Shown: positions 1 to 4,615, numbered from the stretch's first letter. The stretch is DNA of 4,615 nt from a virus (IMGVR_UViG_2548876963_000005), one strand, 5' to 3'. Numbers and translations are program-made. Notes: generated by a model from the letters alone, not told the origin.

Positions 1-34
1 AAAAAAAAAAAAAAAAAAAAAAAAACAAAAAAAA
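1..34. repeat. Homopolymeric poly(dA) tract (A25-C-A8) at the window edge
   Basis: Read directly from the sequence. The window begins inside the tract, so the true length is unknown. Confidence 0.95.
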
Positions 35-181
35 CATTATACATTAATGATAATTCTTTTTATTTTACACAATATATAACCCTATTTATGTTATGAGTTT
101 TTAATTCAAATTATCATTATAATCAATCGAGACTCAGTCATACTCGCGCAGATATTACTGACTACTCAATACTTAGTACAG

Positions 182-193
182 TTGTTATAACAA
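182..193. repeat. Perfect 12-bp palindrome TTGTTATAACAA in the AT-rich region downstream of stf
   Basis: Self-complementary 12-mer, flanked by TACAG (177-181) and CTGTA (199-203). Function unknown; could be a dimeric protein-binding site. Confidence 0.4.
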
Positions 194-246
194 TAGCTCT
201 GTAATCCTGTGTTACGAAGAGCGATCTAGTAAAACTCAGATGTAAG

Positions 247-3200
247 TTATAGCTCGGATAGCTTTAACTTTGCTTCAAGCTCCTCAACCCTTTTTGTCAG
301 TTTCTGAATATGATGAATGAGTGGAACAACCAGACGGTCATACATCACGCCTTCTGCAACCATCCCATTATCAGACGCTATACCTGGATCATCCTCGTCT
401 GTAAGAGGACGCCAGTGAACATATTGCGGTGCTATCTCTCCGACTTCTTCTGCAATAAGGCCATAATGTCCCCAGTCCTTTCTGTCCCTTTCACAAGTCG
501 AGCGATACCATACAGGACGAAGTTTCAACAACTCGTCCGCGTACCTGTTCTCTAAAGACTCGATATCCGTCTTGTATCGACGGGATGAAGTCGAACGAAA
601 TACCATGTTGTAACCAGCAACCGGACTTACGAACATGTTAGGACTATCGGTTGTTGTCTGAATGTCGAATATTTGCAAATAATAACAACTTAACGTCTGG
701 AAGTTTGCATCTAACGAGCCGCCTTCGAGTTTTGATGACGTGATAAAACTTTTATTGAGTTGGTTAATCTCCGATATGCTGTAAGCGCCAATTTCAAGCG
801 GTGTGGGCAGTTTCTTTGTGTTCAGTGCACGACGCCATCCGGGGGAATAAGCTGTGCCATTAAACACATAGATAAATTCCGCATTAGTGAGTGCGCCAGA
901 GACACTTGTCGTCGTGGCTGTTGTTATTCGAATGGTGTAATAAGTTGCACTGTGGCTGAATACTTCTATCACCGCCCCCGCCAGTGGAATAATGCCGCAG
1001 CCTGTTTCACTGTCTGGTATGGAGGCGCTGTCAGCGTATGCCCAGGCACAGCGTGCCACCCATGCTTTTGTATTGAAGGCACCATTATTCTGCAATATCG
1101 TCACTAACTGAGCCGTTGTTATTGATGCACCATTACTCCCTGTGCCTAACCAGCCAGTTGGAGATGCCGGGCAACCAATATTTGCTGGTGACAGAGAAAT
1201 ATTTGCCGAACCGTCAAACGACACGCCATTAATAGTACGCGCTGTCTGCAACTTCGTGGCAGTAGCTGCATTGCCTGTAGTGCTCTGGTTACCAGTCGTA
1301 TTAACACCAGGCAAGTTAATATTCGCAGTACCATCAAAGCTCACACCGCCGATAGTTCTTGCCGTCTGTAGTTTTGTAGCTGTTGCCGCATTACCCGTAG
1401 TGTTCTGGTTACCTGTCGTATTTACTCCCGGAATGCTGTCTTTTTTGGTATAAATCTGAGTCCAGTCTTCCTCAAAGCCATAACCATCACGCGAAGAACG
1501 GTAAAACAGACCGCCATTCTTGTAATGAGCGCGAATCTGGAGAGTCTGGCAACTCCCCACACCGGTATAAAAGTTTGCAACAAGACAGGAGTCGCCAGAA
1601 CGCGTGACATTATATGCACCGGATTCAGCATTCCACGGAACGGCTCCATCCGAATCCGCATAAGCCCCCGTCGCACGTAGGGCAAATGCACCAATATTTT
1701 CCGGCGTGAGATTAATATCCGCCGAGCCATCAAACTTAACACCGTTAATTTTTTTGGCTGCCGCAAGTTTCGTCGCGGTATCGGCGTTCCCCTTCAGTGC
1801 CCCGGTGATCCCACCAGTAACAGACAACGGACCTGAAACTGTTCCTCCGGTTGTTGGCAGTGCTCCAATATCTGATGGTGTAGGTTTCTGATGTGAGCTA
1901 TACATCGTATAAACAACACCATCGGTAACGCCGGAAGGCTTACTCGCTGAATAGGCTGGCGATGTATAAACAGAAACTGACGCATTTGCAGTACAATCCC
2001 AATGGATATTTACACTCGTCGCATAATTGCCAGTCTCAACGTAAATATCATATGTATCGCCGGATGTGTTGATCCAGGCGAAATTCGTTAATCCGACGGC
2101 TGTACGCTTCCACAAAGCTCCGGTAATCCCTTTGGGGTTTCCATTGCCTGCTCGTAGAACCAGTTCTGAAATACCTGCCTGCTGTGGGGAGCCGACGTTG
2201 TATCCGGCACCACCAATCAATGTGATGTAAACGATGGAACTCGCTTGTGGCATGGTAACCGTAGCCAGTTTGAACCACCCAGCCCCGCCAGAGAAAGACA
2301 TCGTTACTGAATTTAAAGTACCAATATCTTTCGGCGTTAATGTGATATCCCCAGTCAGTGCTTTCCCGTTAATTTTTCGGTCAGATGGCACCCTGCTGTT
2401 CGCATTGTCATTGACTGCTTTAACTGCCTTTGGCGTTGCGGCCAGCGATTCACTGGTGCTGTCGACAGCACTGCTAAGTTTCACAACACCTTTAGTGGTA
2501 AGGCTTGCGTCTTCCATCGCAACCGCACCGGCAATCTCTTCAGCACGATCAGCAGCAGCTTCCGCACGGGTCGCAGCGGATTCAGCAGCAGTTTTGCTCT
2601 GAGATGCAGCCGTCGCACTGCCTGCCGCCTCTGTTGCTTTCGTGGATGCCGTTGAAGCACTACCCTTCGCAGCTGACGCCTGCCTGATCGCCTCATCTTT
2701 TGAAGCGGACGCCGAGGTGGCTGATGCAGACGCAGAACTTGCAGATTCAGCAGCTGCCGCCTTAGAGGAAGCGGCATTGTCTTCTGAAGTCTTTGCATTT
2801 GTTTCAGAGGATTTTGCTGCCGATGCTGAATTTTTAGCAGCTGTAGCCTGATTCGTCGCCTCAGTCGCTTTTGCGGTAGCTGTTGTCGCTGATGACGACG
2901 CGCTTTCCGCCGATTTCCCGGCGGCGGTGGCACTGGCTGAGGCCTGCCCGGCACTTGTTGACGCGGCACTGGCAGACGACGCAGCCGCTGTTTTTGAGTC
3001 TGCTGCTGCGGAGGCACTCTGTTCCGCTGCCGTTTCAGAAGCCCTGGCGTTCGTCTCGGACGTTTTTGCCGCCTTCGCGGAATTTCCTGCCGCCGTAGCC
3101 GAGGAAGCTGCACTACTGGCGCTCGAGGCTGCGCTCGTTTCTGATGATTTTGCCGCCTCTTTTGAAGCCGCCGCATCCCGGGCTGAGGTGGCAGCGTCTG

Positions 3201-3888
3201 ACGCTTTCGTGGTCGCGGTGGATGCTGAGGTGGCTGCGGATTGTTGTGACGCTGCCGCGTTCGTTTCTGACGTTTTCGCGGCACTGGCACTGGTGGCCGC
3301 CGCACTTTTTGAGGACTCTGCAGCGGCAGCACTTTTTGAGGCTTCAGTGGCCTTTGTTGATGCTGTTCCTGCGCTGGAAGATGCTGACTGAGCAGATGAT
3401 GCAGCCTGTCCGGCTGACGTGCTGGCTGCGCGTGCTGAGTCTGCAGCATCAGTCGCATGGGTTTCCGCCTCACTGGCAGATGTGCTGGCATCGCTGGCTG
3501 ACTTCTTCGCGGCTTCCGCATTCTGTGCCACTGCGGACGCGTTACGCGCCACCTCTTCCACCATCAGTTCAAAACGGCGCAGTGCCTCCGGACGGGCATC
3601 ATCCTCCGTCATTGCGCCGAGAAAATCATTCAGCGTACCCGGCTTTGAATCCTCATACACTGTGATGGTCCCGGCATGCGAAGGCGGAAAACCTTCAACC
3701 AGCAGGGTGACGCTGTACTGGCCATACTCAACGTCCATACTATAACGCCCGGCTTCATCCGGATTTTCTGAGGCCACCGTGTTCACCACCACCGTGGTGC
3801 TGTTGCGTCTGGCCTTTAGCTGAATGGTGCAGTTTTGTACCGGTTTGCCTGCTCCATCTTTCAGTACACCTGAAATCTTAACCGTCAT
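247..3888 (-). CDS. stf: Side tail fibre protein, mosaic: lambda-Stf-like N-terminal half, tail-fibre repeat shaft, divergent distal region, C-terminal intramolecular chaperone (self-cleaving) domain
   Basis: Single open frame of 1215 codons in the supplied ORF track (247..3894 from a GTG). An in-frame ATG at 3886-3888 gives MTVKISGVLKDG..., which matches the lambda Stf N-terminus as I recall it (MAVKISGVLKDG...), and is preceded by GGGGTGA 5 nt upstream. Stop is TAA at 247-249. Protein aa 1-~470 resemble lambda/Rac-type Stf including the long Ala/Ser/Thr-rich segment. aa ~745-815 (VPWNAESGAYNVTRSGDS...GLFYRSSRDGYGFEE) also resemble lambda Stf. The C-terminus carries an S-x-R-x-K-x-D-I type motif and a coiled-coil-like tail. 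Confidence 0.9.
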   Translation of the reverse strand: MTVKISGVLKDGAGKPVQNCTIQLKARRNSTTVVVNTVASENPDEAGRYSMDVEYGQYSVTLLVEGFPPSHAGTITVYEDSKPGTLNDFLGAMTEDDARPEALRRFELMVEEVARNASAVAQNAEAAKKSASDASTSASEAETHATDAADSARAASTSAGQAASSAQSASSSAGTASTKATEASKSAAAAESSKSAAATSASAAKTSETNAAASQQSAATSASTATTKASDAATSARDAAASKEAAKSSETSAASSASSAASSATAAGNSAKAAKTSETNARASETAAEQSASAAADSKTAAASSASAASTSAGQASASATAAGKSAESASSSATTATAKATEATNQATAAKNSASAAKSSETNAKTSEDNAASSKAAAAESASSASASATSASASKDEAIRQASAAKGSASTASTKATEAAGSATAASQSKTAAESAATRAEAAADRAEEIAGAVAMEDASLTTKGVVKLSSAVDSTSESLAATPKAVKAVNDNANSRVPSDRKINGKALTGDITLTPKDIGTLNSVTMSFSGGAGWFKLATVTMPQASSIVYITLIGGAGYNVGSPQQAGISELVLRAGNGNPKGITGALWKRTAVGLTNFAWINTSGDTYDIYVETGNYATSVNIHWDCTANASVSVYTSPAYSASKPSGVTDGVVYTMYSSHQKPTPSDIGALPTTGGTVSGPLSVTGGITGALKGNADTATKLAAAKKINGVKFDGSADINLTPENIGAFALRATGAYADSDGAVPWNAESGAYNVTRSGDSCLVANFYTGVGSCQTLQIRAHYKNGGLFYRSSRDGYGFEEDWTQIYTKKDSIPGVNTTGNQNTTGNAATATKLQTARTIGGVSFDGTANINLPGVNTTGNQSTTGNAATATKLQTARTINGVSFDGSANISLSPANIGCPASPTGWLGTGSNGASITTAQLVTILQNNGAFNTKAWVARCAWAYADSASIPDSETGCGIIPLAGAVIEVFSHSATYYTIRITTATTTSVSGALTNAEFIYVFNGTAYSPGWRRALNTKKLPTPLEIGAYSISEINQLNKSFITSSKLEGGSLDANFQTLSCYYLQIFDIQTTTDSPNMFVSPVAGYNMVFRSTSSRRYKTDIESLENRYADELLKLRPVWYRSTCERDRKDWGHYGLIAEEVGEIAPQYVHWRPLTDEDDPGIASDNGMVAEGVMYDRLVVPLIHHIQKLTKRVEELEAKLKLSEL
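250..588 (-). other. C-terminal intramolecular chaperone / autoproteolytic domain of Stf (endosialidase-chaperone, peptidase S74-like), aa ~1103-1215
   Basis: Motif S1103-S-R-R-Y-K-T-D-I1111 fits the S-(D)-x-R-x-K-x-(N/D)-I signature at the self-cleavage site of endosialidase and T5 L-shaped tail fibre C-terminal chaperone domains. It is followed by ~100 aa ending in a heptad-like EELEAKLKLSEL tail. Recognised from memory of the family, not searched. Confidence 0.65.
1192..1431 (-). repeat. Two tandem 120-bp (40-aa) direct repeats inside stf (aa 822-861 and 862-901)
   Basis: Protein units PGVNTTGNQNTTGNAATATKLQTARTIGGVSFDGTANINL and PGVNTTGNQSTTGNAATATKLQTARTINGVSFDGSANISL. By my manual codon-by-codon count they share 36/40 aa but only about 85/120 nt. 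Confidence 0.85.
1693..1755 (-). repeat. Conserved tail-fibre linker motif, copy 2 (aa 714-735, KKINGVKFDGSADINLTPENIG)
   Basis: Same motif as copy 1, about 620 bp away. DNA blocks accaatat(t/c)tt(c/t)cggcgt and ccgttaattttt are nearly identical between the copies. Confidence 0.7.
2311..2382 (-). repeat. Conserved tail-fibre linker motif, copy 1 (aa 505-528, DRKINGKALTGDITLTPKDIGTLN)
   Basis: K-I-N-G-x-x-(L/F)-x-G-x-x-D-I-x-L-T-P-x-D/N-I-G pattern typical of the phage tail fibre repeat shared among lambda Stf, P2 H, Mu S and T4 gp37-type fibres. Shares short near-identical DNA blocks with copy 2 (for example cccgttaatttt versus accgttaatttt). Confidence 0.7.
2515..3549 (-). repeat. Low-complexity Ala/Ser/Thr-rich coding segment of stf (aa ~116-460)
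   Basis: About 345 aa composed almost entirely of A, S, T with scattered K, E, Q, N, D, G. The DNA is GC-rich and internally repetitive (gc[atcg] codon runs), which opens long spurious ORFs in other frames on both strands. Confidence 0.85.
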
Positions 3889-3891
3889 ATT

Positions 3892-3899
3892 CACCCCAC
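3892..3899 (-). promoter_or_regulatory. Shine-Dalgarno region for stf (GTGGGGTG, 5-nt spacer to the ATG at 3888)
   Basis: Minus strand GTGGGGTGAATATG. The purine-rich GGGG(T)G sits directly 3' of the terminator U-tract. Confidence 0.55.
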
Positions 3900-3926
3900 A
3901 AAAAAGCCCGCCTGAACCGGCGGGCT
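3898..3926 (-). terminator. Rho-independent terminator downstream of lom, immediately upstream of the stf ribosome-binding site
   Basis: Minus strand reads AGCCCGCC-GGTTCA-GGCGGGCT followed by TTTTTGT: a perfect 8-bp GC-rich stem (3905-3912 pairing with 3919-3926), a 6-nt loop and a U-tract. It starts 22 nt after the lom TGA stop. Confidence 0.7.
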
Positions 3927-3947
3927 TTCATCACGCTGTACTACTAA

Positions 3948-4547
3948 TCAGAATTTATAACCGACACCTACGATGAAACTGTCAGTGCGCCAGTCGCCAC
4001 TGCCGGAACCTTCATAAGCGACATCAATGGCCACCGATTCGGTCGGGTTAAACTGCACGCCAGCTCCCCACGCCATAGAGGTGTTACTGTGGCGAGCGTC
4101 ATCACTTCCGGTCAGCACATCGTGCGTTTTCCCCTTGCTGTCGGTCACCTGCAGATAATCCCCGGAGAAGGTCGACACACGGCTGTAAGCCACACCCGCC
4201 ATCGCATACGCACTGAACCATTCATTCACGCGTACAGACGGACCCGCCATCACGCTGAACCAGCGGTTACGCACGGAATCTTCATGCCAGCGGGTATCGC
4301 TGTAACGGGTCAGCTGGCGATTCTTGTCTCCTGCATAGCTGAATGACGTCACCAGCCCCAGCGTGTCCGTAAATTCATAACGGTATTTCACGTTAATGCC
4401 CTTCAGGTCATCGCTGCCTGGCATATCAGTATGGGTCTGAAGATACCCGGCGCTTAGTGTGGACTGATGCTCTGCTGCGCTCGCTGGCGTACCAGCGGCA
4501 ACCAGCCAGACTACTGCGGACAGAATAACAGCACATAATTTACGCAT
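3948..4547 (-). CDS. lom: Lom, Ail/Lom/OmpX-family outer-membrane beta-barrel protein (lambda lom homologue)
   Basis: 199-aa ORF. N-terminus MRKLCAVILSAVVWLVAAGTPASA-AEHQ is a typical Sec signal peptide with an AxA cleavage site. The rest (STLSAGY...GINVKYRYEFTDTLG...SFSYAGDKNRQLTRYSDTRWHEDSVRNRWFSVMAGPSVRVNEWFSAYAMAGVAYSR...VGVGYKF) matches lambda Lom nearly residue for residue as I recall it, and ends in the C-terminal aromatic residue typical of OMP beta-barrels. Position immediately upstream of stf matches the lambda gene order J-lom-stf. SD GAGAGG lies 5 nt upstream of the ATG. Confidence 0.93.
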   Translation of the reverse strand: MRKLCAVILSAVVWLVAAGTPASAAEHQSTLSAGYLQTHTDMPGSDDLKGINVKYRYEFTDTLGLVTSFSYAGDKNRQLTRYSDTRWHEDSVRNRWFSVMAGPSVRVNEWFSAYAMAGVAYSRVSTFSGDYLQVTDSKGKTHDVLTGSDDARHSNTSMAWGAGVQFNPTESVAIDVAYEGSGSGDWRTDSFIVGVGYKF

Positions 4548-4552
4548 AATTA

Positions 4553-4558
4553 CCTCTC
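4553..4558 (-). promoter_or_regulatory. Shine-Dalgarno for lom (GAGAGG, 5-nt spacer)
   Basis: Minus strand GCGAGAGGTAATTATG. Confidence 0.6.
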
Positions 4559-4568
4559 GCTTTTCTGC

Positions 4569-4595
4569 AATAAAAAAGGCGCCATTTCTGGCGCC
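4569..4595 (-). terminator. Rho-independent terminator upstream of lom (end of the preceding transcription unit)
   Basis: Minus strand reads GGCGCCA-GAAA-TGGCGCC followed by TTTTTTATT: a 7-bp stem (4578-4584 pairing with 4589-4595), a GAAA tetraloop and a U-tract. The lom SD and ATG follow about 20 nt later. Confidence 0.6.
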
Positions 4596-4615
4596 CGTAT
4601 ATGGGTTATAAAATT

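Follow-up and report, generated by a model that had tools for sequence, protein, structure and literature searches.

Does a long side tail fibre gene that begins like the stf of phage lambda and ends like something else mark a newly formed chimera, or a member of an existing family? The question is raised by a 4,615-nucleotide stretch of viral DNA (IMGVR_UViG_2548876963_000005; at its full length referred to here as the window), in which one long gene, stf, encodes a fibre-like protein of 1213 residues. An earlier note, made from the sequence alone, had read this protein as a new joining of a lambda-Stf-like proximal half to a distal half foreign to lambda. We conclude, with a probability of roughly 0.88, that stf encodes the side tail fibre of a lambda-like Escherichia coli prophage, and that it is an ordinary, catalogued mosaic in which a lambda-type end and rod are followed by distal modules common to other phages.

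An identical 1213-residue protein, present on two assemblies, is deposited as GenBank ELG37097.1 ("phage tail fiber protein [Escherichia coli KTE84]"), and its 90% cluster has 99 members. The 1108-residue relative WP_077764199.1 is 99% identical over residues 347-1213, the sole difference being a 105-residue in-frame indel in the coiled coil (residues 186-290); it shares this shorter form and the same lom-stf context with WP_077819255.1. Further relatives of 1173 residues are 91-94% identical over 100% of their length; they are 40 residues shorter, and align as if they carried one copy, not two, of a 40-residue repeat. Partly collinear relatives are also found in E. albertii. ELG37097.1 and the 1108-residue proteins carry generic annotation only ("prophage tail fiber N-terminal domain-containing protein"), and an NCBIfam scan of the whole Stf-like protein assigns it to no family. 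The earlier note had named end-to-end alignment with a known fibre as the outcome that would speak against a new chimera, and this is what the databases return; the protein therefore belongs to a family that already exists in the databases under generic annotation. That family consists of widespread, recombining enterobacterial prophage tail fibres, of which the window protein is a deposited member.

The mosaic structure itself stands. For comparison, Ur-lambda Stf (P03764; collar structure PDB 9E7M/9MGH) was rebuilt from two frameshifted open reading frames (ORFs) of NC_001416, giving a protein of ~775 residues, which the 1213-residue window protein far exceeds, as had been remarked. The N-terminal collar aligns over all of its 94 residues with 9E7M_Ta, a tail fibre chain of Ur-lambda (E 5.6e-51). 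Residues 1-303 are collinear with lambda Stf 1-303, with identities of 102/112 in residues 1-112 (91%), 52/73 in residues 113-185 and 92/105 in residues 186-290. Residues 304-408 form an extra block of 105 residues that has no lambda counterpart, after which residues 409-497 align with lambda 304-392. The lambda-like part, first placed at residues 1 to ~470, is thus confirmed and reaches further, to about residue 497, if the extra block is set aside. Similarity stops after "AVKAVNDNAN", where lambda continues "AVKVVMDETN". The last lambda-like stretch is the PF03406 (Phage_fiber_2) motif, which also occurs in lambda Stf (residues 358-394) and in Mu S and S' (residues 105-156). The junction between the lambda-type proximal half and the non-lambda distal half accordingly falls at about residue 497 (lambda ~392).

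This position is informative in the light of the lambda Stf layout, which comprises a collar (residues 1-91), a linker (92-101), a proximal coiled coil (102-393) and a hinge (394-422) (PMC12617516); the natural junction therefore falls precisely where the proximal rod ends and the hinge starts. It adjoins lambda R393, the point at which engineers grafted a P2 fibre onto lambda Stf (PMC11338833). Engineered lambda-Stf chimeras are functional when fused at R393 (P2) or at S528 (K1F, K5, KL106), and share with the window protein the design of a lambda N-terminal part and a foreign distal part (Brodel et al. 2024, PMC11338833). The former are laboratory constructs with characterised donors, whereas the latter is a natural combination.

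Between collar and junction lies an Ala/Ser coiled-coil rod. Within its heptads, Ala occupies position 1 in 47 of 50 cases, Ser position 4 in 37 of 49 and Ala position 5 in 36 of 49, and the self-identity of the rod is 0.42 when the lag is a multiple of 7, versus 0.20 otherwise. Repeat spacings in the DNA of the rod are multiples of 21 nt, with a single exception of 27 nt. Tandem Repeats Finder reports only a weak 21-nt array and a poly-A tract, and the heptad structure is therefore shown at the protein level.

The rod varies in length by whole heptads, and is 105 residues (15 heptads) longer than that of lambda. The block of residues 186-290 is missing from the 1108-residue relatives and the block of residues 304-408 is missing from lambda; each spans 105 residues, or 15 heptads, equivalent to roughly 15 nm, and indels of exactly this size have occurred twice, independently. 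Among the relatives, the spacer from "EEVARNA" to "T..G[IV]V.LS" measures 241, 248, 255 or 353 residues, all 3 mod 7, and the sole exception to this rule is a partial protein. The length variants keep both the frame and the heptad register, which points to selection on the protein, and they illustrate how a coiled-coil fibre changes length without loss of register.

Beyond residue 513, BLASTP against lambda Stf finds nothing specific, with or without the low-complexity filter, and the lambda distal Pfam domains PF07484 (Collar) and PF03335 (Phage_fiber) are not found by Pfam in the window protein. Two regions that had been singled out as foreign to lambda, residues 529-713 and the ~200 residues before the chaperone domain, indeed give no high-scoring segment pair (HSP) against lambda Stf. 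Residues 745-815 had been thought lambda-like, which proved mistaken: BLASTP yields no specific HSP there, filtered or unfiltered, and the segment instead matches PF12604, a domain that lambda Stf does not carry, and the Mu S' fibre (PDB 8JU3). The distal order is a beta-sandwich knob, a gp37_C domain, two 40-residue repeats, then the second of the Mu-S'-like domains, a short tip and a Peptidase_S74 domain (Table 1). AlphaFold2 (AF2) monomer models are usable for the knob (residues 526-661) and the second Mu-S'-like domain (residues ~915-1020) only; the model of the knob is similar to domains at the N-termini of tailspike-like proteins.

Table 1. Features of the window, with residue numbers of the stf product and positions counted from the first nucleotide of the window.
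Feature	Residues	Window position	Strand	Basis
stf, side tail fibre gene	1-1213	247..3888	minus	ATG at 3888, TAA at 249-247; PF08400 and PF13884
Collar (StfN) domain, tail anchor	1-94	3607..3888	minus	PF08400 (to residue 134), E 2e-72; 9E7M_Ta
Proximal coiled-coil rod, 49 unbroken heptads A-x-x-S-A-x-x	113-455	2524..3552	minus	heptad analysis
Phage_fiber_2 (PF03406) junction motif, TTKGVVKLSSA...LAATPKAVKAV	462-501	2386..2505	minus	E 1.1e-19
All-beta knob (beta-sandwich), no lambda counterpart	526-661	1906..2313	minus	
Linker repeat GNADTATKL..KINGVKFDGSADINLTPENIG, recurrent recombination border	697-735	1684..1800	minus	sequence reading; HSP ends at residues 670-679 and 720-739
gp37_C-type domain (PF12604), homologous to Mu S' and P1 Sv'	749-819	1432..1644	minus	E 2.4e-7, 31.2 bits
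Two tandem 40-residue fibre repeats, GVNTTGNQ.TTGNAATATKLQTARTI.GVSFDG.ANI.L	820-899	1192..1431	minus	DNA direct repeat
Second globular domain, Mu S'/P1 S-type (AQL..IL...GAFN ... GWRR.LNTK)	906-1034	787..1173	minus	8JU3
Distal tip just upstream of predicted cleavage site, presumed receptor-binding end	1035-1100	589..786	minus	
Peptidase_S74 intramolecular chaperone	1101-1213	250..588	minus	PF13884, residues 1101-1157, E 4e-8
lom, Ail/Lom outer-membrane protein gene, 199 residues		3948..4547	minus	PF06316, E 9.5e-122
Terminator-like hairpin and U-run between lom and stf		3900..3929	minus	dG (folding free energy) -21.2 kcal/mol, z -4.3
Terminator after the end of J		4596-4577		pattern scan
AT-rich non-coding stretch downstream of stf, 28% GC		1..246	n/a	ORF list, composition, alignment with two related genomes

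The shaft is related to the S fibres of Mu and P1 in two stretches (8JU3, overall E 1.6e-48). Residues 734-853 align with residues 324-439 of 8JU3; the PF12604 match in this region exceeds its cutoff (31.2 versus 22.5 bits) when the segment is scanned alone, and is not reported in the whole-protein scan. Residues 863-1026 align with 8JU3 residues 168-320 (i-Evalue 8e-26), and the AF2 model of this second domain matches 8JU3 in Foldseek (E 3.6e-8), the other Foldseek matches being noise. The repeats that lie between the two globular domains are visible in the DNA as a direct repeat (1198-1311 and 1318-1431, 73% identical, spacing 120 nt). Mu S' and P1 Sv' (8JU3; P1 C-segment) have in common with the window protein these two homologous globular domains, at ~40-45% identity, and PF03406 in the constant part of S. 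Their domain order is the opposite: compared with Mu S' and with P1 Sv' (3726-5283 in the retrieved P1 locus), residues 749-1034 of the window protein (787-1644) place the gp37_C-type domain first, which shows that shuffling also changes the order of modules inside the shaft. Mu and P1 further differ in having another tip, a separate U/U' chaperone and tip switching by DNA inversion; the window protein has no Mu-type tip, and no U-type chaperone gene or invertible segment accompanies it, the ORF list of the window containing no U-like or cin-like ORF.

Mapping each segment to its best relative, as the earlier note had proposed, gives a different closest isolated phage for different modules (phi458, Cyrano, a P1 variant and T1-like phages). 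For residues 1 to ~692 it is the lambdoid phage phi458 (~90%), and for residues 514-735 it is phi458 together with the 108-kb phages Cyrano and CMS-2020a (90%), followed by fibres of Yersinia, P1-like, T5-like and T4-like phages (50-75%). For residues 906-1039 (tblastn) the closest are Cyrano (82%) and the P1 variant MH422554 (78%), with Mu, D108 and P7 at 43%. Residues 1040-1213 reach at most 62%, to lateral-fibre/chaperone proteins of ~50-kb T1-like coliphages (tonn, tunus, SECphi27, swan01). The lambdoid phage phi458 (44.9 kb) matches at ~90% in three pieces spanning residues 1-904 (37% of the query) and at 89.9% DNA identity over window positions 1811-4615, and its distal part diverges. 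Cyrano, in which the protein is annotated as a P1 S homologue, matches at 89% over pieces spanning residues 458-1039; it has a different N-terminus and no close match to the tip and chaperone (residues 1040-1213). Neither matches end to end.

Breakpoints, defined as positions where similarity stops although both proteins continue, were collected from 374 retrieved relatives. They cluster at residues 670-679, 720-739, 810-829, 860-879, 900-919 and 1030-1039, the last being the strongest. These clusters are the module borders, and several lie in or near conserved "TATKL..ING..FDG..NI.L" linkers. The gene was probably assembled by recombination, at such linker motifs, with the fibres of various other phages of enterobacteria. 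It is plausible that the chimeric architecture changes host range, as had been proposed.

The C-terminal chaperone domain seen earlier is a Peptidase_S74 domain (PF13884, 33.8 bits against a cutoff of 22 in the whole protein, 35.6 bits for the segment alone). Its first residues "TSSRRYK" (S1101, K1106) align with "TSGIEYK", the start of the chaperone domain of the L-shaped tail fibre 8HQZ_d, and provide the Ser at the cleavage site and the Lys five residues later that are expected of the S74 class. Of the aligned relatives, 36 of 39 conserve S1101 and 34 of 38 conserve K1106. Self-cleavage is predicted between T1100 and S1101, with Ser1101-Lys1106 as the catalytic dyad, roles that we take over from published work on K1F and T5. 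The K1F endosialidase, T5 pb1 and the 8HQZ fibre have the same C-terminal S74 domain with Ser-x4-Lys at its start and the tip directly upstream. Their upstream receptor-binding parts are unrelated to that of the window protein, and the similarity is weak: a PDB sequence search with the tip and chaperone returns 8HQZ_d alone, marginally (E 0.012), and cleavage is here a prediction. The K1F donor used for grafting onto lambda Stf is itself a tailspike of the S74-chaperone class.

Several points weigh against our main interpretation of stf. The S74 Pfam match spans residues 1101-1157 alone, with a moderate score (33.8 bits). AF2 monomer confidence is low for the tip and most of the chaperone (mean predicted local distance difference test score, pLDDT, of 57), with pLDDT below 50 for residues 1048-1112 and 1120-1153. 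In addition, we infer the receptor, trimer state and cleavage from related proteins; what the analysis itself shows are the sequence relationships, the domain content, the gene order and the lack of tfa.

The gene neighbourhood favours a lambda-type side tail fibre. The gene order J-lom-stf is that of lambda, with stf as the last gene of the tail module. Taken together with the sequence, the window protein has the PF08400/StfN collar (PF08400 at residues 1-134), the Ala/Ser rod ending in PF03406 and the closing place in the tail module, behind J and lom, that characterise a lambda-type Stf, and lacks the lambda-type distal half and separate Tfa. In Ur-lambda, the distal part consists of a hinge, a distal coiled coil, PF07484, PF03335 repeats and a His-rich gp37-like tip, with Tfa encoded separately; in the window protein it consists of the knob, gp37_C, repeats, Mu-S'-like domain, tip and S74, and no tfa is present.

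The best-surviving alternative, which we nevertheless consider quite unlikely, is that stf is a relic in a defective prophage, with an ORF that looks intact but has ceased to yield a functional fibre. Many E. coli lambdoid prophages are cryptic, and the window, which corresponds exactly to the whole 4615-bp contig AICE01000093.1, comes without the rest of the phage. Decay is countered by the uninterrupted 3.6-kb ORF, by the conservation of the predicted catalytic residues and of all module borders in relatives, and by the length variants described above, which hold frame and register. It is also countered by E. coli KTE84 (KB733108.1), where the same protein ends a complete lambda-type module comprising T, tape measure (H), M, L, K, I, J, lom and stf, with the tail-module genes T to J and lom full-length.

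That the protein is a newly formed, previously unseen chimera of lambda Stf and a foreign fibre is very improbable. Such a reading could draw on its rarity: none of the isolated phage genomes covers at least 80% of the window or of the protein, just 4 complete E. coli genomes out of 5426 reach that coverage of the window (these match 94% of it at 96.5-97.5% DNA identity, and encode 1108-residue proteins), and the module combination is not described in the literature found. Against it stand the identical deposited protein on two assemblies with its 99-member cluster, the 1108- and 1173-residue relatives that align apart from one indel or end to end, and the partly collinear proteins of E. albertii. 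Least credible of all is an enzymatic tailspike or depolymerase, an idea prompted by the first description of S74 in endosialidases and by the tailspike-like knob model, since Pfam, PHROGs and PDB sequence searches find no beta-helix, sialidase or lyase domain, the modules between repeats are small (80-135 residues) and homologous to non-enzymatic Mu/P1 S domains, and one of them matches gp37_C, a Pfam family named after T4 gp37.

For a lambda-type mosaic side tail fibre, a mechanism can be proposed that draws on these homologies and on earlier published studies of lambda Stf, T5 pb1 and the chaperones of endosialidases. Three chains would form one fibre, whose collar (residues 1-94) would dock at the gpV/gpM junction of the tail, as in Ur-lambda. 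A short linker would join it to a three-stranded Ala/Ser coiled coil, 49 heptads long, and past residue ~497 the lambda distal part would be replaced by a beta-structured shaft. The S74 domain would act as an intramolecular chaperone that drives trimer folding and then cuts itself off at T1100/S1101 through Ser1101-Lys1106. An S74 domain in place of a separate Tfa would explain the absence of tfa after stf: no ORF of at least 40 residues falls entirely inside window positions 1-246, a stretch that has no tfa-like ORF, and no Tfa-like gene follows stf in E. coli KTE84 either.

Reversible primary adsorption would then run through the exposed tip, possibly together with the lectin-like knob, and would target a surface structure different from the one that lambda uses. 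The OmpC-binding tip of lambda is absent from the window protein, and O-antigen or lipopolysaccharide (LPS)-core glycans are the usual targets of such lateral fibres (PMC11990801, PMC12312913). As the receptor, OmpC is less likely than an LPS or O-antigen glycan. Two broader ideas, unlikely but worth stating, are that the whole-heptad steps of the rod, two of them of exactly 15 heptads, could tune fibre length to O-antigen or capsule thickness, and that the reversed Mu-S'-type domains ahead of the T1-like tip with S74 might set an uncharacterised receptor specificity.

The discovery value of the locus is small, as the fibre is deposited and generically annotated, and phage textbooks already describe how tail fibres swap segments. 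A modest practical value lies in offering a natural lambda-Stf scaffold with a self-chaperoning S74 distal module, joined near the R393 position that engineers chose empirically; it could act as a donor, or guide the design, when lambda-based delivery particles are retargeted.

The coding part of stf (window 3888..250, minus strand) lies within the single long ORF of the window (3894/3888..247 in the ORF list). A GTG two codons upstream of the ATG, at 3894, would give a protein of 1215 residues; this start was rejected in favour of the ATG at 3888, as it is with the latter that the lambda Stf start lines up. Alternative ORFs over the Ala/Ser region (window 2481-3665) are 2481..3521 (minus, 346 residues), 2927..3391 (plus, 154 residues) and 3144..3665 (plus, 173 residues). 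The annotated lambda orf206b sits at the equivalent place, and these ORFs, which look like by-products of GCN-rich heptads, were rejected as composition artefacts. The drop in GC content from ~60% (2400-3600) to ~45-50% (250-2400) was likewise not read as recent foreign origin, since the GC-rich part is where the Ala/Ser (GCN/TCN) heptads are encoded.

Expression of stf would need read-through of the hairpin between lom and stf, as is expected under antiterminated late transcription. A promoter/terminator pattern scan of the window returned fewer sites than shuffled controls, and missed this hairpin.

Downstream of stf, window positions 1-34 form an A-rich tract (A25 C A8 C), and two related E. 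coli genomes have a longer, variable (A7-9 C1-2)n tract at the same position; the contig probably ends here because the tract broke the assembly. In KTE84, stf is followed by two cargo genes and then by ybhB-bioABFCD-uvrB, so that this end of the prophage adjoins the side where lambda integrates. In strain 377323_2f, a near-identical stf region adjoins prfC and osmY instead. The cargo after stf is the same in both strains, namely a DUF1653 protein (with a nitroreductase match in KTE84) and an alpha/beta hydrolase.

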